DNA of 29,228 nucleotides from a virus, in IMG/VR virus record IMGVR_UViG_3300010338_000991. One strand, written 5' to 3'. Below the pieces are notes generated by a model that made no database searches, had not been told where the DNA came from, and saw only the letters and a list, made by a program, of their open reading frames with translations. The position numbers and the translations under genes were made by a program. Below are positions 7,289 through 29,228 of the stretch, piece after piece (within the stretch, counting starts at the first letter, position 1; each line of letters opens with the position of its first letter).

Positions 7289-7566
7289 TATCTTGCCTCG
7301 CAATTTTCGCACACGTAATAATTGCCATGATCAGCCACCTGCTTCCATGTATATAGTCTGCCGCATTTGCCACAGCGAGCTATGCTATGCGCTTTGATTT
7401 TTTCGTATTCCTTGCCTAAGTTTTTTAGCGATCTGCGCAAGGCAATTTCTGTCTCTGCGTGTTTCAAACTCGCTCTTATCCTGTGCTTATCAATTAGCTT
7501 TGCTCGGCGGGCAAAATAACCCGCCAGAGCAATTGCGATAATGGTTATGCATATCATTATGATCAT
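7288..7566 (-). CDS. Membrane-anchored zinc-ribbon protein (about 92 aa; ORF track extends to 7608)
   Basis: AAGGAG 8 nt upstream of ATG 7566, which overlaps the RecT stop (ATGA); N-terminal TM helix; C-terminal CGKCG..CENC. Confidence 0.4.
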   Translation of the reverse strand: MIIMICITIIAIALAGYFARRAKLIDKHRIRASLKHAETEIALRRSLKNLGKEYEKIKAHSIARCGKCGRLYTWKQVADHGNYYVCENCEAR

Positions 7567-10005: not shown

Positions 10006-10878
10006 TTACGCAGCATCATATAGTTGGGCAGGTATCTGGTAGTTAATGCCGGCATGCAGGCGACAGTGATTGTAATCGTGGATGGACAATTTGATCAACT
10101 CCCTGGCCAGGCGTTTGCTCTTCAGGACCTTATGGATCAGGTATTCATGCTTCAGGGTATTGAAGAAGCGCTCTATTTTGGCATTGTCATAGCAGTGGTT
10201 TTTCCCCGTGAAGCTTATAGTCAGGCCATGGGACTGGAGTTTTTTCAGATATCGATAGGAACAATACTAGCAGCCATGGTCTGAATGGTGGATGGCTCCT
10301 TTCAGTTCCGGCGTGCTTTTCAAAGCCTTATTAAGGCAATCCAGAGCCCCGTCAGTGCGCAGATTGTTGCTGATGTTGAAGCTGAGTATCTTACGGGAAT
10401 ACATGTCCATCAGAACCGACAGGTAGAGAATGCCTTCGGTGGTGTGGATATAGGTGATGTCGGCGCAGATCGCCTGGTTGGGACGGGTTATAGGTAGTCC
10501 CTTGATCAGGTTTTCAAAGCTGGAGTCATAAATACCGGGGATAGACGTGCGAACCTTCCTGTAACGCCGGGACAGGACCAAGCCGCGATCGCGCAGGATC
10601 CTGTGGAGTTTGTCACGGCCGATCCCAATCCCCAGGTTGGACAACTCATGCCACAGCTTGCGGATGCCGTAAGCAGGATGCGCCGCCCTGATCTTAAGTA
10701 CCTCGTCCACAATCATCTGCTCGTATTCCGCAACCTTCTGGGAGGATGCCAGGGTCTCATAATACCAGGACTTGCTCTTGTTGAGATTCTTGCAGATGGC
10801 GCTCATGGACGCTTTGACAGAAGCCGCTCCAGCGTTCTTCTTTGCTCGGGGGACAGCCTGGAAAGTGAAGTTTTTTTT
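10006..10878 (-). pseudogene. IS3 transposase OrfB (DDE catalytic domain) interrupted by one in-frame TAG at 10267-10269
   Basis: Translation reads ...AIHHSDHGC, then TAG, then a further 86 in-frame codons (YCSYRYLKK...GKNHCYDNAKIERFFNTLK...) up to TAA at 10006. Confidence 0.7.
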
Positions 10879-11218
10879 CAGCCTCGCTGATGTTCTCGTT
10901 GACCACCTCCACATAGCTCTGAAGGCAAATATTGTGCAGGGTGACAGAGGCCAGGGCGGACTCCAACTCCTTGATCCGGTCTTTTTGCTCTTGCAGTATC
11001 GATTTCTCGTCTTTCATCTCAATCCTCACGTATCTTCTTATTACTTGATCCTTTCCGTATTTGCGGAGCCACTTGTAGATCGTGGTTCTGCCATTGATTT
11101 CATAAAGACGGGTTGCCTCTGCTATTGTCAACCTTCCTTTATCAATCTCCTGAACAACTTTCAACTTGAACGCCTCACTGTAGCGAAGCGTTACCTGGGC
11201 GATGGACTGTTTGGCCAT
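10757..11218 (-). CDS. IS3 transposase OrfA (HTH and leucine-zipper part)
   Basis: AAGGAG upstream of ATG 11218; N-terminal HTH-like LTIAEATRLYEINGRTTIYKWLRKY; coiled-coil segment; overlaps OrfB in the -1 frame. Confidence 0.8.
   Translation of the reverse strand: MAKQSIAQVTLRYSEAFKLKVVQEIDKGRLTIAEATRLYEINGRTTIYKWLRKYGKDQVIRRYVRIEMKDEKSILQEQKDRIKELESALASVTLHNICLQSYVEVVNENISEAEKKLHFPGCPPSKEERWSGFCQSVHERHLQESQQEQVLVL
10871..10877 (-). other. Programmed -1 ribosomal frameshift site A_AAA_AAA for OrfAB fusion transposase
   Basis: Minus-strand codons GAA AAA AAA in the OrfA frame; OrfB frame is open in -1 from this point. Confidence 0.5.
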
Positions 11219-12307: not shown

Positions 12308-12861
12308 ACTTTCACCACCTTGATTTGCTTTTTCCTGTAGCTTGCGGCACTAAACGGAATCAGAGTATAGAACTCCACCAAGCGGTCAATAATGCGCTCA
12401 CCGTATATTTCACCTATCAATTCGCAGGACAAATTCGTGGTGATAATACAGCGATTGAACTTGCCTTCACGATAGCGTTCGTATTGCATGGCGATCAGAT
12501 TCGCGAAATAAGCCCTTGCCGCAGGCGTGTCCATCTCAGTGCCAAGATCGTCAAGCACCACGAGATCATAACTCAAGTAGCGTTCCAGTTTAGCGATCTC
12601 GTCACTTCTTGCCTTGCCGTCAAGCGCGCTTGCTTTCAAGTATTGCGCATACATCGATTGTGCGCTGATGCCTATCGCGGAAAAATGCGGATCATTGTCA
12701 TGCTGTTCCGCGATGTGATTATACACCACCTCTGCCGCAGCAGTCTTGCCGCATCCAGGCCTTCCGATAAACAACCAAGCAAACGGGTCTCCACTCGCTA
12801 CGATTGGCTCGATATAAGCGTGTAACTTCTGCTGTGGAATATACCAATCAGGATGTTTCAC
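12304..12861 (-). CDS. DnaC/IstB-like AAA+ ATPase (helicase loader)
   Basis: Walker A GRPGCGKT and Walker B LVVLDDLG in the translation; sits directly downstream of the replisome-organiser gene. Confidence 0.75.
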   Translation of the reverse strand: MKHPDWYIPQQKLHAYIEPIVASGDPFAWLFIGRPGCGKTAAAEVVYNHIAEQHDNDPHFSAIGISAQSMYAQYLKASALDGKARSDEIAKLERYLSYDLVVLDDLGTEMDTPAARAYFANLIAMQYERYREGKFNRCIITTNLSCELIGEIYGERIIDRLVEFYTLIPFSAASYRKKQIKVVKV

Positions 12862-13637
12862 GTCATCTCCTTCCCGATAAAATCGGTAACATTGTTAATC
12901 TGCTCAATGCGGCTCATTTGTTTTGCCGCGCTTGCGTTCTTATCCTTGCGATATTTGCCGAGTATCTCGTCATGATCTCCGGCAAACACCGGAAAGCCGT
13001 TCTTTCTGCTCAGGAACTCGGCAAGTTTCCATTGATACGAGAAAAAGCAATCAGGATCATTGATAACGGCATGATAGTTTTCTATGCCTTGCTTTATCTC
13101 GGCTAACGTGTATTCTTTGCAGCGTTTTGCGACGGCTTTCTCAATGTCGCTTGTGAGCTTCTTGCACCTAAGGCTCTGCGCCTTAGCGTTCCAATGCTCA
13201 ATGATCTCGCTTGCGTAGCTTGGCTGCTTAGGCGATTGTTTGGGTGCTGGTGTTTCTGGCTCTGATTGAGCTTGTGCTTTAGCTTTGCCGCCGATAGCGC
13301 CTGCCACGCTCCTCACTTCCGAAATCCTCTTGCGCTTTTCCAGTGTTTCCTGAACGATATCGGCACTGTATTTGTTGTCACACAAGATAAACGCCTCAAT
13401 TGACACGCAATAAGAAAAGAAGCGCTCAAGCTCATCGCAGTCAACGCCATAATCATCTGCATAGATCTCGATATCATCATGCTCTATCCAGCCACCGGAG
13501 CGCATCATTATCTCAATGCTAATATAATACATAGCATATCCCTTAAGCTTGCCAAACCTCGCCTTAATTCTCCGCATCTGTGGCTCATTGTGCGAATCAA
13601 TAGAGTGTTTGAACCATTTTTCGGGATTATGATTCAT
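12858..13637 (-). CDS. Replication initiation / replisome organiser with DUF4373 (Lin1244-like) N-terminal domain
   Basis: N-terminus WFKHSIDSHNEPQMRRIKARFGKLKGYAMYYISIEIMMRSGG resembles the DUF4373 signature of phage DnaD-like organisers; Lys/Ala-rich linker. Confidence 0.6.
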   Translation of the reverse strand: MNHNPEKWFKHSIDSHNEPQMRRIKARFGKLKGYAMYYISIEIMMRSGGWIEHDDIEIYADDYGVDCDELERFFSYCVSIEAFILCDNKYSADIVQETLEKRKRISEVRSVAGAIGGKAKAQAQSEPETPAPKQSPKQPSYASEIIEHWNAKAQSLRCKKLTSDIEKAVAKRCKEYTLAEIKQGIENYHAVINDPDCFFSYQWKLAEFLSRKNGFPVFAGDHDEILGKYRKDKNASAAKQMSRIEQINNVTDFIGKEMT

Positions 13638-13816
13638 TATTTCCCCCGATGTTCTACCATGAACTTATCAAGGTCTTGAATGTCAAACATCATCTCCTTT
13701 CCGCCGGGACGGGAATACTGCACCTTGCCCTGCTTTGCGTATCTCCTGAGCATGTATTCAGTAATGCCCAAATACTTGGCTGCTTGTGACGTTTTAAGAT
13801 ATCTCTGGGCAATCAT
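13637..13816 (-). CDS. Small HTH DNA-binding protein (excisionase/MerR-like), first gene of the minus-strand unit (ORF track extends to 13987)
   Basis: GGGAGA upstream of ATG 13816; HTH segment LKTSQAAKYLGITEYMLRRYAKQGKV. Confidence 0.5.
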   Translation of the reverse strand: MIAQRYLKTSQAAKYLGITEYMLRRYAKQGKVQYSRPGGKEMMFDIQDLDKFMVEHRGK

Positions 13817-13970
13817 GTTTTTCTCCCGTTGATGTAATTGCTTTTGTGTTTGTGTGTCTGGCTCATAAGAACCTCCTTTTAATTTCTGAATCCACCAAAA
13901 TACAGCCGCAAATCCTGTAAAGCATTTTCTTTGATTTGTGTTGACTTGTATTAATGTGAATGCGTAAATC

Positions 13971-14096
13971 AAGCAAATGCTAAGCAAATGCTAAGCAAAT
14001 GCTAAGCAAAATCAAGCAAACCGAAGCAGATAAGATAAGATAAGATAAGATAAGAGTAGATGAGATTAGATGAGATTAGAGGAGATTAGAATAGAC
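13971..14096. repeat. Iteron-like tandem repeat array: AAGCA-containing units at 11/11/11/10/10-bp spacing, GATAA x5, and four 10-bp units (TAGATGAGAT x2, TAGAGGAGAT, TAGAATAGAC)
   Basis: Read directly from sequence; located in the divergent intergenic region upstream of the replication module. Confidence 0.7.
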
Positions 14097-14142
14097 TATC
14101 ACTTTGCTAACGCAAAGATGATATATACACCATGAAAACCGT

Positions 14143-14160
14143 TTTCGTGACGTCACGAAA
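14143..14160. promoter_or_regulatory. Perfect 18-bp palindrome TTTCGTGACGTCACGAAA (candidate operator)
   Basis: Exact two-fold symmetry; overlaps a second palindrome GAAAACCGTTTTC (14134-14146); lies about 45 bp upstream of the TTGACA box. Confidence 0.45.
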
Positions 14161-14203
14161 TTGGTTAAGGCGATGCTGCCGGATCACCAAAATCACATTT
14201 TTC

Positions 14204-14231
14204 TTGACAAATAATTAATGCTGATTATATT
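14204..14231 (+). promoter_or_regulatory. Sigma70-like promoter candidate (TTGACA, 16 bp, TATATT) for the plus-strand unit
   Basis: Hexamers read directly; a TATAAT also occurs at 14244-14249. Confidence 0.4.
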
Positions 14232-14262
14232 GTAATCATGAGCTATAATTTTGATCACGATT

Positions 14263-14306
14263 TTGACATTGACATTGACATCGACTCGATTAACATCGAC
14301 ATCGAT
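14263..14306. repeat. Hexamer array TTGACA x3 in tandem followed by TCGAC/ATCGAC/ATCGAT repeats
   Basis: Sequence ttgacattgacattgacatcgactcgattaacatcgacatcgat, ending 47 bp upstream of the ParB-like gene start. Confidence 0.4.
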
Positions 14307-14352
14307 GAAAAAGACGAGCGCAAACACAATGTGTCTCGCATGGAGGCGATGA

Positions 14353-14820
14353 GTGAAGACAAATAAGCTTAAATTCAATCCCAATAATCCTCGCAAATGT
14401 AGTAAAGACAAGCTTGAAAAACTTATGCGCTCAATCGAATCATTCCCTGAAATGATGAAGTTGCGCCCAATGGTTTACGATCCCGAAACCATGTATGTTT
14501 TAGGCGGGAATCAGCGCCTCGCAGCTATTAGAAAGCTCGGCATGAAAGACATCCCGGATGAGTGGACGATCGCCGCCACAGATCTCACCCCAGAACAGCA
14601 AAAGGAATTTGTTCTGCGAGATAATGTGCAGTTCGGCGATTGGGACTTTGAGATGCTGTCTGCTGAGTTTGGCGAATTTGATCTTGAAGAAATGGGCATG
14701 GATATGCCAGAGATAGAGGCAGAAGAGCCATATGTCCCAAGTGAAACTAAAGAAATTGACACAGATATAGCATTTGATCACAAGTGCCCAAAATGTGGAT
14801 TTGAGTTTAATGAATCTTAG
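14353..14820 (+). CDS. ParB-like nuclease (ParB/Srx) domain protein with C-terminal zinc ribbon
   Basis: GGAGG 5 nt upstream of a GTG start; N-terminal KLKFNPNNPRK...MYVLGGNQRLAAIRKLG resembles the ParBc domain; C-terminal CPKCG. Confidence 0.6.
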   Translation: MKTNKLKFNPNNPRKCSKDKLEKLMRSIESFPEMMKLRPMVYDPETMYVLGGNQRLAAIRKLGMKDIPDEWTIAATDLTPEQQKEFVLRDNVQFGDWDFEMLSAEFGEFDLEEMGMDMPEIEAEEPYVPSETKEIDTDIAFDHKCPKCGFEFNES

Positions 14821-15829
14821 ATATAACATTAAAGACATTGCAGATATAGAAAAGACGCATAAAGCATTTTCTACTTTTGCGTGTGGTGGGGGATCGTCAA
14901 TAGGCTACAAACTGGCAGGGATTGAAGTTATTGGAGCAAATGATATTGATCCTGAAATGAAGTGGCACTATACAAAAAACCTTAACCCATCGCTATATTA
15001 TTTATGCCCAATATCTGACATGATATCAATGGAATTGCCAAACGAGCTTTTTGCCCTTGACATATTAGATGGATCACCTCCATGCTCAACTTTTAGCACA
15101 TCTGGGAACAGAGAAAAGGATTGGGGCAAAAACAAATACTTTAGGGAAGGTCAAGCAAAGCAAGTTCTTTCTGACTTGTTTTTTGACTACATAGACCTTG
15201 TCAAAAGGCTACAGCCAAAAGTATCTATATCAGAAAATGTAACTGGAATTATCAAAGGAAATGCTAAATATTACGCCAAAACAATAGTGCAAAAACTTGA
15301 TGAAGCAGGATATGTTACTCAAGTTTTTCAGATAAACGCAGCAAATTGCGGTGTCCCTCAAATGAGAGAACGCGTGTTTTTTATAAGTAGGCGCAAAGAT
15401 ATAGACAAAAAACCACTTGTATTATCACCAAAAGAAAAAATACTTACTGTATGGGATGCTATACACGACATACAGGATTTGACAGATGATGAGATTAGGG
15501 ACACAGCCCCAAATAACACTGACTTGAAATATTGGAACAAAACCAAGCCAGGATGCAGCTATTCAAGCGTTCACGAAAAAGGCAGCTTTTTTTCTTATTA
15601 TAGGCTAAACAAAGACAAACCAAGCAACACTATCCAAGCAAACCATCAATGTTATACTCACCCATCAGAATGCAGAAACCTAACTTTTAGAGAAGTCAAA
15701 AGACTGTCGTCATTTCCAGATGATTACGAAGCAAAAACAGATAACATCGGGAAGTATATGTGCGGAATGAGTGTGCCTCCATTTATGATGTATCAAGTAG
15801 CAAAAGCAGTAAAAGAGCAGTGGCTATAA
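14810..15829 (+). CDS. DNA (cytosine-5)-methyltransferase (ORF track starts at a TTG at 14774)
   Basis: Motif I FACGGGSSIGYKLAG, catalytic PC motif GSPPCSTFS, ENV motif ISENVTG, QxRxR motif VPQMRERVFF. Confidence 0.85.
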   Translation: MNLRYNIKDIADIEKTHKAFSTFACGGGSSIGYKLAGIEVIGANDIDPEMKWHYTKNLNPSLYYLCPISDMISMELPNELFALDILDGSPPCSTFSTSGNREKDWGKNKYFREGQAKQVLSDLFFDYIDLVKRLQPKVSISENVTGIIKGNAKYYAKTIVQKLDEAGYVTQVFQINAANCGVPQMRERVFFISRRKDIDKKPLVLSPKEKILTVWDAIHDIQDLTDDEIRDTAPNNTDLKYWNKTKPGCSYSSVHEKGSFFSYYRLNKDKPSNTIQANHQCYTHPSECRNLTFREVKRLSSFPDDYEAKTDNIGKYMCGMSVPPFMMYQVAKAVKEQWL

Positions 15830-15865
15830 TGTGTGATGAGACAATATCCGGACAAGGAGTATCGA

Positions 15866-16813
15866 ATGATTAGAACCGCTGAATGTGTAACGCCGAAGCA
15901 TCCAGACAAGCTGTGCGACCGCATAGCTGATGCCATATTGACGGAGGCAATAAAGCAAGATCCAAACGCCAGAACGGCAATAGAAGTTTGTGCCGGTCAT
16001 GGCATTGTGACCGTTCTGGGCGAAATGACAACCACAGCCTTTGTTGATGTTGCTGACATAGCCCGCAGGATTACAGATGGTGAGTGCGGCGTGCAAGTCA
16101 ATATTGTGCGACAGTCACCCGACATAGCGATGGGAGTTGATGCCGGAGGCGCCGGAGATCAAGGCATTATGATCGGATATGCCTGCAACGAAAATGATAA
16201 TTTTATTCCTACGGAATTAAACCTCGCCAGAGATTTGTGCCAATTCATTTATATGCGACACGAAGTTGACGGCAAAACTCAAATCACAATGGACGGCAAT
16301 AAAATATCAACTATTGTCGCAAGCTTTCACAACACAAAGAGCGGAGATCTGAGATCCCTTGTGCACCAGTGGCTTGATGGCAGAAAATGCGAATCGATAA
16401 TGTGTAATCCTGCCGGCGATTGGAAAACCGGCGGGCTTAACGCTGATTCTGGCGTAACGGGAAGGAAACTTGCCATAGACAACTACGGAACCAGAACACC
16501 CATTGGCGGCGGCGCATTTAGCGGAAAAGACCCCACCAAAGTGGATCGCTCTGCCGCGTATATGGCAAGAAAAATTGCTGTCGATATCTTGCGCCAGAAA
16601 AATGCAAAAGAAGTTATCGTTTCGCTTGCTTATGCAATCGGCGTTCCTGATCCGGTAATGACGGAGTGTATTGCCGATGGAAATCATGTTGACATTTCAC
16701 ACTACAGCTTGACACCAAAAGCAATTATCGATGCGCTTGGGCTTCGTGATATTGATTATGAAAAAACAGCAGCGTGGGGGCACTTCGGCATCGGCATGCC
16801 GTGGGACAAATAA
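15866..16813 (+). CDS. metK: S-adenosylmethionine synthetase (MetK), compact form of about 315 aa
   Basis: AAGGAG 6 nt upstream of ATG 15866; motifs KHPDKLCDRIADAILTEA, GAGDQGIMIGYA, DGKTQIT, GGGAFSGKDPTKVDRSAAYMARKIA and C-terminal TAAWGHFG, aligning with bacterial MetK. Confidence 0.85.
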   Translation: MIRTAECVTPKHPDKLCDRIADAILTEAIKQDPNARTAIEVCAGHGIVTVLGEMTTTAFVDVADIARRITDGECGVQVNIVRQSPDIAMGVDAGGAGDQGIMIGYACNENDNFIPTELNLARDLCQFIYMRHEVDGKTQITMDGNKISTIVASFHNTKSGDLRSLVHQWLDGRKCESIMCNPAGDWKTGGLNADSGVTGRKLAIDNYGTRTPIGGGAFSGKDPTKVDRSAAYMARKIAVDILRQKNAKEVIVSLAYAIGVPDPVMTECIADGNHVDISHYSLTPKAIIDALGLRDIDYEKTAAWGHFGIGMPWDK

Positions 16814-28811: not shown

Positions 28812-29228
28812 ACTTGTTTACATTGATCACAATGATTACGAGCACACTTTTTATAATGTGCTTAATTTTAGCATTGATCCTATACAAGCTAATACAGACA
28901 ACATTTTTACTTCATCCGGCAGAAAGCTAAGCATAACAATCCCCTATGATGCTTCCGCCATAAACGCATTCCACAATAACGATCAGCCGAATGAAATATA
29001 TCCGGAATATTTAGCAGGGCACTTTAGATTCTTTAAGGATAACGAAGTAATTTTTATTGGCATGGCAAAAGTTACATTTATCGACATTGATGAGCAGAAT
29101 GCAGAGATACAATTTAGGATTTCAGACGCTCTTGATCTTTGGATCGATTTAGCCAAATCAACAAACTTTGATGTAAAGGCTGCGGAACAAAAAGTGATAC
29201 ATTTGCGACCATCAACCGGAGATTATAC
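28801..29228 (+). CDS. Tail protein, 5' part (ATG at 28801 overlapping the tape-measure stop; runs off the window end and continues at 1-1184; full product about 494 aa)
   Basis: Open frame from ATG 28801 with no stop to the window end; the last 127 nt equal bases 1-127 and the frame matches ORF 93-1184; position immediately downstream of the tape measure gene. Confidence 0.5.
   Translation, partial: MSYKLVYIDHNDYEHTFYNVLNFSIDPIQANTDNIFTSSGRKLSITIPYDASAINAFHNNDQPNEIYPEYLAGHFRFFKDNEVIFIGMAKVTFIDIDEQNAEIQFRISDALDLWIDLAKSTNFDVKAAEQKVIHLRPSTGDY
29102..29228. repeat. Terminal overlap copy 2: identical to 1-127
   Basis: Same as above; unique genome length is therefore about 29101 bp. Confidence 0.85.

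Follow-up and report, generated by a model that had tools for sequence, protein, structure and literature searches.

What role does a perfect 18-bp palindrome play in the only divergent control region of a phage genome, and what kind of factor might read it? The window (the whole stretch of DNA analysed, 29,228 nucleotides; IMG/VR record IMGVR_UViG_3300010338_000991) carries a 127-bp terminal direct repeat (positions 1-127 and 29102-29228) and is therefore a complete circular assembly of a phage genome of ~29.1 kb; the same contig is present in the public run SRR4236668. Neither megablast nor tblastn with the initiator protein identified a close relative among cultured phages, and the TerL of the window is only ~30% identical to those of known phages. 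The intergenic region 13817-14237, the sole divergent one of the genome, holds the palindrome. The leftward genes, from 13816, encode an HTH_17 protein, a Lin1244-type initiator-like protein, a DnaC-like loader and an IS3-type insertion, with a radical SAM protein, a RecT-like protein and RusA further on. The rightward genes, from 14238, encode a 42-aa ORF, a ParB_N-like protein, a C5 methyltransferase, a SAM synthetase, TerS and TerL, with the major capsid protein beyond TerL; the remaining ORFs have no Pfam match. The IS3-type insertion (10267-11218, minus strand) lies within the leftward early module and comprises an HTH orfA (10757-11218) and an rve integrase core (10267-10914). The genes for the ParB_N-like protein, the C5 cytosine methyltransferase and the SAM synthetase are clustered at 14353-16813, just upstream of the terminase genes. 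Four palindromic tetranucleotides, CTAG, GTAC, GGCC and ACGT, are strongly under-represented in the whole window (observed/expected ratios of 0.09, 0.24, 0.25 and 0.54, respectively), a depletion that looks like restriction-site avoidance.

Within the divergent region, iterons, an A-rich array, an inverted repeat, an AT-rich 15-mer and a 30-bp dyad follow one another in this order. The elements around the dyad and the genes flanking the region are:

12858-13637, minus strand: replication-initiator-like protein (Lin1244_N; PHROG replication initiation)
13637-13816, minus strand: HTH_17 / excisionase-family DNA-binding protein, 59 aa, first gene of the leftward replication module
13971-14010: 11-bp iterons, AAGCAAATGCT x 3.6, type 1 of the three types in the clade
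14028-14090: A-rich 5/10-bp tandem array, AGATAAGATT x 6.3, differing in unit and copy number among relatives
14097-14123: second inverted repeat, ATCACTTTGC-TAAC-GCAAAGATGAT, kept in all relatives
14117-14131: AT-rich spacer GATGATATATACACC between the two inverted repeats, invariant in the clade
14204-14231, plus strand: promoter-like TTGACA-N16-TATATT, 11/12 match, kept in relatives
14353-14820, plus strand: ParB_N-like protein with a C-terminal zinc ribbon, in the rightward operon after the 42-aa ORF

An ATG at 14238 sits 6 nt past the -10 box, with no Shine-Dalgarno sequence (14226-14240); the first rightward gene may be leaderless, because this spacing is conserved even though the ORF that follows differs among relatives. 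In the window, the ORF in question (14238-14366) is highly acidic (DIDIDID...) and lies on TTGACA/GACATC hexamer tandem repeats (14263-14306); it may be a gene or simply an array of repeats past the promoter.

The first-pass annotation, made from the letters of the window, had placed two overlapping palindromes here, of 18 and 13 bp, and their sequences and coordinates proved exact. The distance of about 45 bp that it gave to the TTGACA box is close to the measured gap of 43 bp (14160 to 14204). The symmetric elements are:

14143-14160: TTTCGTGACGTCACGAAA, perfect 18-bp palindrome, core of the dyad, reading FRDVTK in dinD genes
14134-14146: GAAAACCGTTTTC, 13-bp odd palindrome, the left arm of which is a weak third half-site
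14137-14166: AACCGTTTTCGTGAC/GTCACGAAATTGGTT, non-coding copy of the dinD palindrome, an imperfect 30-bp dyad with 13 of 15 pairs
14183-14208: ATCACCAAAAT and TTTTTCTTGAC, weak half-site-like sequences with two mismatches each to ATTTTCGTGAC, the second overlapping the -35 box

The 18-mer is the longest perfect palindrome of the window. A perfect palindrome of at least 18 bp was obtained in 36 of 300 mononucleotide shuffles of the window (12%), and, by a binomial estimate, ~0.03 30-mers per window would reach 13 or more of 15 pairs. These within-window statistics are modest, and the meaningfulness of the palindrome therefore rests on comparative data. Further copies, which the first-pass annotation had considered worth seeking, were absent: with up to three mismatches allowed, the 18-mer is single in the window. 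Its sequence, TTT CGT GAC GTC ACG AAA, conforms to a family pattern, TTT-NNN-GACGTC-N'N'N'-AAA, in which the inner triplets are complementary; CGT/ACG is the commonest variant in dinD genes. The dyad flanks read AACCGT ... TTGGTT in the window (13/15 pairs) and AACCAT ... TTGGTT in its relatives (14/15), the family flank pattern being (G/A)A(C/T)CAT ... ATG(G/A)T(C/T).

The centre of the dyad falls at about -87 from the predicted start of the rightward transcript, and the dyad overlaps neither the -35 nor the -10 box; because of this distance, it is not in the classical position of a repressor site. The pair ATCACCAAAAT/TTTTTCTTGAC is centred 44 bp from the dyad centre, and the region containing it (14183-14208) is kept throughout the clade, with the exception of contig L109. 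Two such weak half-site-like sequences would fit cooperative binding, a thin indication. The DNA fold of positions 14095-14175 has two hairpins (-15.5 kcal/mol, z = -4.8). An intrinsic terminator was considered and rejected: there is no T-run, the sequence past the stem being TTGGTTAAGG, and a scan of 13400-14600 revealed no terminator-like site. Likewise, Rfam covariance models gave no match at E <= 1 across 13700-14500, and neither the window nor its relatives contain a dinD gene or a dinD-like flank.

Relatives were sought in public viral and metagenome contigs by means of flanking DNA patterns, rather than the palindrome itself; a search seeded with the initiator protein gave no match. The dyad was kept in all 14 related contigs found via the flanks. 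It belongs to a near-invariant block of ~140 bp (~14097-14240), extending from the first inverted repeat to the ATG past the promoter, whereas the first leftward gene, the iterons and the first rightward gene all vary. Two relatives have a G-to-A change near the dyad centre, and two asymmetric arm positions swap sides among relatives, the 30-mer of L453 being the exact reverse complement of that of the window within identical flanks. In L109, the divergence from the other relatives starts precisely at the right edge of the palindrome and extends as far as the -35 box. The 13-bp palindrome is unique to this genome, its relatives carrying GGAAACCATTTTC or CGAAAACCATTTTC, and is probably incidental; the half-site-like third arm upstream is partly conserved (CACGAAAA in L451, L453 and L455; CATGAAAA in the window).

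The relatives also bear on the proposal that the palindrome is an operator of the phage's small HTH protein (13637-13816), made in the first-pass annotation with a host factor as the alternative. All clade members with sufficient flank have an HTH_17 gene, which is the first of the leftward operon here, and dyad symmetry would suit a dimeric HTH protein. However, when the window was compared with L009, L045, L047, L055, L080, L109, L449, L451 and L453, three sequence types of HTH_17 matched three types of iteron in 10 of 10 loci, and the dyad was alike in all. This covariation suggests that the HTH_17 and initiator genes form, together with the iterons, one origin-specificity module, from which the dyad is separate. 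Moreover, among the neighbours of ~60 non-coding copies of the palindrome described below, HTH_17 accounted for only 2 of 149 ORFs, including that of the window itself. The HTH_17 protein is therefore an improbable binder. What stands of the operator proposal is a conserved cis element upstream of a rightward sigma-70-like promoter, and a host factor fits better than HTH_17, with the reservation that the dyad lies off the -35 and -10 boxes.

The setting also resembles an iteron-type origin. Iterons, the A-tract array, a hairpin, the AT-rich 15-mer and the dyad adjoin genes for initiator-like, DnaC-like and HTH_17 proteins, and the cumulative GC-skew minimum falls in the divergent region; this is a likeness of layout only, and the origin is putative. 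The AT-rich spacer may serve as an unwinding element. The dyad itself could then be a structural part of the origin, extruding or folding with the neighbouring hairpin beside the AT-rich stretch and aiding unwinding or helicase loading. In Porphyromonas phages, too, the palindrome immediately precedes a 190-aa ORF and the primase, and the inversion of the arms between relatives, as between the window and L453, is what hairpin-templated strand switching would give. Against this reading, the same sequence occurs at loci that are not origins, within dinD genes and next to housekeeping genes in ordinary intergenic DNA of chromosomes; the GC-skew switch is equally well explained by a switch in the transcribed strand; and nothing links an origin function to this precise sequence rather than to palindromes in general. 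We consider a structural role at the origin unlikely.

The distribution of the palindrome extends far beyond this clade. The exact 18-mer was found at at least 120 loci in IMG/VR, in 29 unrelated contexts among the matches listed, and at at least 120 loci in GTDB species-representative genomes (one genome per species), where chance would give ~9 in 596 Gb. The carriers listed include Burkholderiales, Bacteroidales, Planctomycetota, candidate-phyla bacteria, Methanimicrococcus, Methanolapillus and Woesearchaeota. In contexts with no other similarity, the flanks prolong the symmetry to GACCAT...ATGGTC or GATCAT...ATGATC, and in 48 of the 72 distinct non-dinD contexts listed the perfect palindrome is 24 bp or longer, up to 46 bp. 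In a plasmid collection, the only further matches were dinD genes and one non-coding copy that was already known. A repetitive extragenic palindrome or MITE was rejected, the element being single in the window (up to three mismatches allowed) and present in one to four copies per locus elsewhere.

Of the 128 genome occurrences listed, 66 lie at a fixed position in intact dinD genes and 57 are non-coding, as are those in ~28 viral contexts among the matches listed. In dinD, a gene of the Bro-N family found in Bacteria and Archaea, the element is a dyad of ~30 bp (consensus GACCATTTTCGTGAC/GTCACGAAAATGGTC) at about codons 63-72, where the 30-mer reads DHFRDVTKMV on either strand. The genes carrying the 18-mer match the NCBIfam DinD equivalog NF008573 (345-377 bits) and have an N-terminal Pfam Bro-N domain; the gene is annotated dinD (DNA-damage-inducible protein D) in E. 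coli and in a Streptococcus phage. The family is large, with at least 8000 sequence clusters at E <= 1e-10, archaeal members included. The window 30-mer matches the dinD motif of a phage (L258) at 28 of 30 positions and the form common in the clade matches it at 29 of 30: the window dyad is a non-coding copy of the dinD element. No paper mentioning this sequence, or a palindrome within dinD, was found in a literature search. The tisAB-dinD antisense region of the literature is located at the 3' end of dinD and is unrelated.

Selection on the dinD palindrome was assessed with genes gathered from viral contigs by means of degenerate peptide patterns, so the codon choice in the sample is unbiased. 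The motif peptides vary (FRDVTK, FADVGK, FVDVNK, FADVSK, FADVRK, FPHVGK, FLDITK), and the codons change in pairs that keep the DNA palindromic (CGT/ACG, GCC/GGC, GTT/AAC, GCT/AGC, GCG/CGC, CCC/GGG, CAC/GTG, GAT/ATC). The 44 unique motifs had a mean of 12.98 of 15 pairs, versus 8.86 +/- 0.21 for synonymous-codon shuffles (maximum mean of 9.55 in 2000), and 33 of them had at least 13 pairs, versus 0.43 expected. The Arg codon of the motif was CGT in 17 of 17 cases and the Thr codon ACG in 18 of 18, whereas CGT and ACG make up 23% of Arg and 17% of Thr codons, respectively, in the rest of these genes. In-frame 30-nt windows outside the motif had a mean of 3.7 pairs and never more than 10. Mismatches in the motif cluster in the central six bases, with no clear G-U bias (small sample, judged by eye). 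The palindrome in dinD is thus selected as a nucleic acid, and not only as the protein segment that it encodes. The E. coli dinD is only 11/15 palindromic, which makes this species a poor model for the element.

The non-coding copies follow the same rule. A scan with degenerate inner triplets yielded at least 120 viral loci, and 109 of the 120 listed were outside dinD; the triplets were complementary in 74 of these 109, versus ~1/64 by chance. The complementary variants outside dinD include GTT/AAC, ACT/AGT, GCT/AGC and GCC/GGC, and most lie in stop-riddled sequence. One phage family, represented by L329, has four different palindromes within 125 bp just past its lysis cassette, each best matching a different dinD subfamily (27, 27, 26 and 24 of 30 positions). 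An alternative reading of this array (L329:1352-1591) is a small ORF that has a strong ribosome-binding site and encodes four tandem HFxDVxKM-like peptides; members of the family are L339, L341, L357, L374, L409, L414, L420, L424, L436 and L439.

Copies also occur beside dinD itself, upstream at 32, 138 and 202 nt (L194, L133 and L192, respectively) and downstream at 35-913 nt (L206, L231 and L216). Some (L194, L133) are truncated N-terminal fragments of dinD ending at the palindrome, and external copies may differ in their inner triplet from the adjacent dinD. A Methanimicrococcus MAG has four exact 18-mers in 1.2 kb (L133:3424-4647): one in an intact dinD, one upstream and two in N-terminal fragments fused upstream of a ribosomal protein S24e gene. 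In Niastella, a second GACGTC-centred palindrome, CCTTCCTGACGTCGGGAAGG, lies ~20 nt from a CGT/ACG copy (L140:~7390-7444), and a similar but degenerate sequence is found at L192:~1585-1637; in L192, both palindromes are upstream of dinD, and the second one resembles the CCT/AGG palindrome inside the neighbouring dinD. More generally, the neighbours of non-coding copies are mixed (dinD, RhuM, Fic, hsdS, integrases, toxin-antitoxin and housekeeping genes), and no single gene family accompanies the ~60 copies examined.

These comparisons largely refute the reading of the window palindrome as a chance occurrence or a functionless relic. The frequency of 18-bp perfect palindromes in shuffled sequences would allow it, but the dyad is conserved in 14 relatives amid mosaic surroundings, hundreds of extended copies exist elsewhere and a relic of dinD would be at odds with the absence of dinD-like flanks from the window. 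We regard it as the least probable of the readings considered.

The sharing of discrete variants between phage copies and dinD genes, and the match of each site of the L329 array to another dinD subfamily, could be accounted for at the RNA level, by a transcript complementary to the palindrome of the dinD mRNA that silences dinD or by a hairpin for RNA processing. The contexts of non-coding copies are mostly tandem (26, versus 6 divergent and 5 convergent), and co-directional copies are probably transcribed. By contrast, the window dyad is probably not transcribed, because it lies between predicted divergent promoters; the lack of both a clear G-U bias among the mismatches and an Rfam match also weighs against such an element, which seems improbable here.

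A further possibility is that the palindrome is a recombination joint, a short sequence shared at module boundaries at which phage modules and halves of Bro-N genes are exchanged and hairpin-templated copying takes place, with no regulatory role. At least four independent groups have mosaic junctions that coincide with the palindrome (L004/L082/L106/L031; the window clade versus L109; L062/L058; L340/L381), the truncated dinD fragments end exactly at it, and perfect symmetry reaches into its flanks, up to the 46 bp noted above. In L053 and L030, the palindrome is 39-76 nt from the start of an integrase gene; genes for RecT-like and RusA proteins are present in the phage, and the Bro network is known for domain swapping (PMC10111431). 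Exchange of this kind leaves unexplained both the compensatory-codon symmetry within dinD and the invariance of the dyad in 14 relatives; the phage has no integrase, and no C-terminal dinD fragment starting at the palindrome was seen among the occurrences listed. A joint devoid of regulatory function is accordingly rather improbable. An attP site was rejected on related grounds: the ORFs of the window include only the IS3-type transposase and no tyrosine integrase, an integrase is nearby in only 3 of ~60 contexts and adjacent only in L053 and L030, and C-terminal junction fragments of dinD are lacking.

In ~8 independent contexts, a TerL of one clade lies 0.5-7 kb downstream of the palindrome and reads away from it, versus one context with the opposite orientation, which would be compatible with a packaging signal (a cos/pac recognition site) of one terminase lineage. 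The L329 array follows a lysis cassette, a frequent location of cos, and an HNH endonuclease is nearby in L339. Nevertheless, only a minority of the phage contexts have a TerL of this clade, the copies in dinD, chromosomes and plasmids are left unexplained, and three unrelated genes separate the dyad from terS in the window, making a packaging function very unlikely.

Because the window dyad lies between predicted divergent promoters, is not a terminator and has no Rfam match, a DNA-level role in the phage is most likely and, since the phage also has no dinD of its own, we favour a DNA site read in trans. From its distribution, the palindrome probably serves a widely shared factor rather than the phage's own small DNA-binding protein. 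Our preferred, still tentative, account is that a dimeric factor supplied in trans, possibly a DinD/Bro-N protein, docks on the dyad and acts on the rightward promoter, the adjacent origin or both. The dyad would act as DNA between the type-specific iteron/replication module and the promoter of the ParB-methylase-SAM synthetase-terminase-structural operon. The best candidate for the docking factor is a Bro-N protein of the DinD type, encoded by the host or by a co-resident element; the promoter, the origin or both would respond to it once docked, or the site would titrate it. In favour of such a protein, the element is linked to dinD loci, and published work regards Bro-N as a superfamily that binds DNA (PMC8096241, PMC10111431). 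A sequence-based search for a solved structure among DinD relatives found none, and the structure model of DinD has low confidence overall (pLDDT of 61.7). The half-site CACGAAA (14152-14158) has the same sequence as the yeast SCB element, the target of the APSES (KilA-N-like) domain of Swi4, a tentative lead; a fold search with the DinD model gave no APSES match.

Recognition by one protein is not easily reconciled with inner triplets that vary and yet remain complementary, or with the four adjacent variants of one phage. A base-paired hairpin fits this pattern better than a single protein reading the bases, and hairpin-templated mutation could also yield complementary triplets in the absence of selection. 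A further reading, which we consider quite unlikely, sees the dinD palindrome as a focus of host-phage conflict. The dinD genes would keep a functional dyad of ~30 bp at the cost of constraining their protein, and mobile elements would hold non-coding copies, sometimes in arrays spanning several dinD subfamilies, as decoy sites or antisense mimics that capture or silence DinD. The copy in the window, at the block of origin and late promoter, might then sense or neutralise DinD.

Cis elements with dyad symmetry are ordinary features of phage control regions. The operators of dimeric HTH proteins, such as CI/Cro sites and LexA boxes, share with the window dyad their symmetry, the divergent control region and possibly a weak site over the -35 box; here, however, the only strong site stands off the promoter, 43 bp before the -35 box, no gene for a cognate regulator adjoins it, and the same sequence recurs across phyla and in both prokaryotic domains, unlike species-specific operators. 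The lambda origin has iterons, an AT-rich region and a 28-bp palindrome, and lies inside the initiator gene. Lambda and other viral origins resemble the window in having iterons, an AT-rich stretch and a palindrome of ~30 bp beside initiator genes, but the lambda palindrome differs in sequence, whereas the palindrome described here is found, identical, in places that are not origins. The presence of one copy within dinD and another near its start is reminiscent of looping operator pairs, lac O2 and gal OI being internal or auxiliary operators inside coding regions; maintenance of the internal site by co-varying amino acids, as in dinD, is not described for them.

Integron attC sites and REP elements are palindromes conserved in structure. 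Like them, the element has conserved outer arms, variable but complementary inner positions and copies at gene boundaries; unlike them, it is present in one or a few copies per genome, not in arrays or by the hundred, has neither an integron integrase nor a RAYT transposase nearby, measures ~30 bp and is embedded in a protein-coding gene. With parS (TGTTNCACGTGAAACA), the window palindrome shares AT-rich flanks, conservation across phyla and a ParB_N-like gene just downstream, and genes for ParB-methylase fusions lie near the palindrome in L002, L009 and L021. A parS/ParB system was rejected: the sequence differs by inspection from the 16-bp parS consensus, the ParB_N match is weak (E of 0.0039, below the cut-off) with no HTH domain detected, and the methylase-ParB gene is sometimes upstream and sometimes downstream.

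What looks new is the identity of a phage element with a gene-internal palindrome held by co-varying codons, its spread in both domains and its recurrence in unrelated phages. For annotation, six-frame or peptide searches with HFRDVTK-type motifs will catch non-coding palindromes. The dinD gene is a clear case of a coding segment in which amino acids co-vary to preserve a DNA or RNA palindrome. If the proposed reading is correct, one short element would link the very widespread but little-understood DinD family, the control regions of many unrelated phages and the exchange of gene modules, and the function of DinD would become directly testable via the 30-mer.
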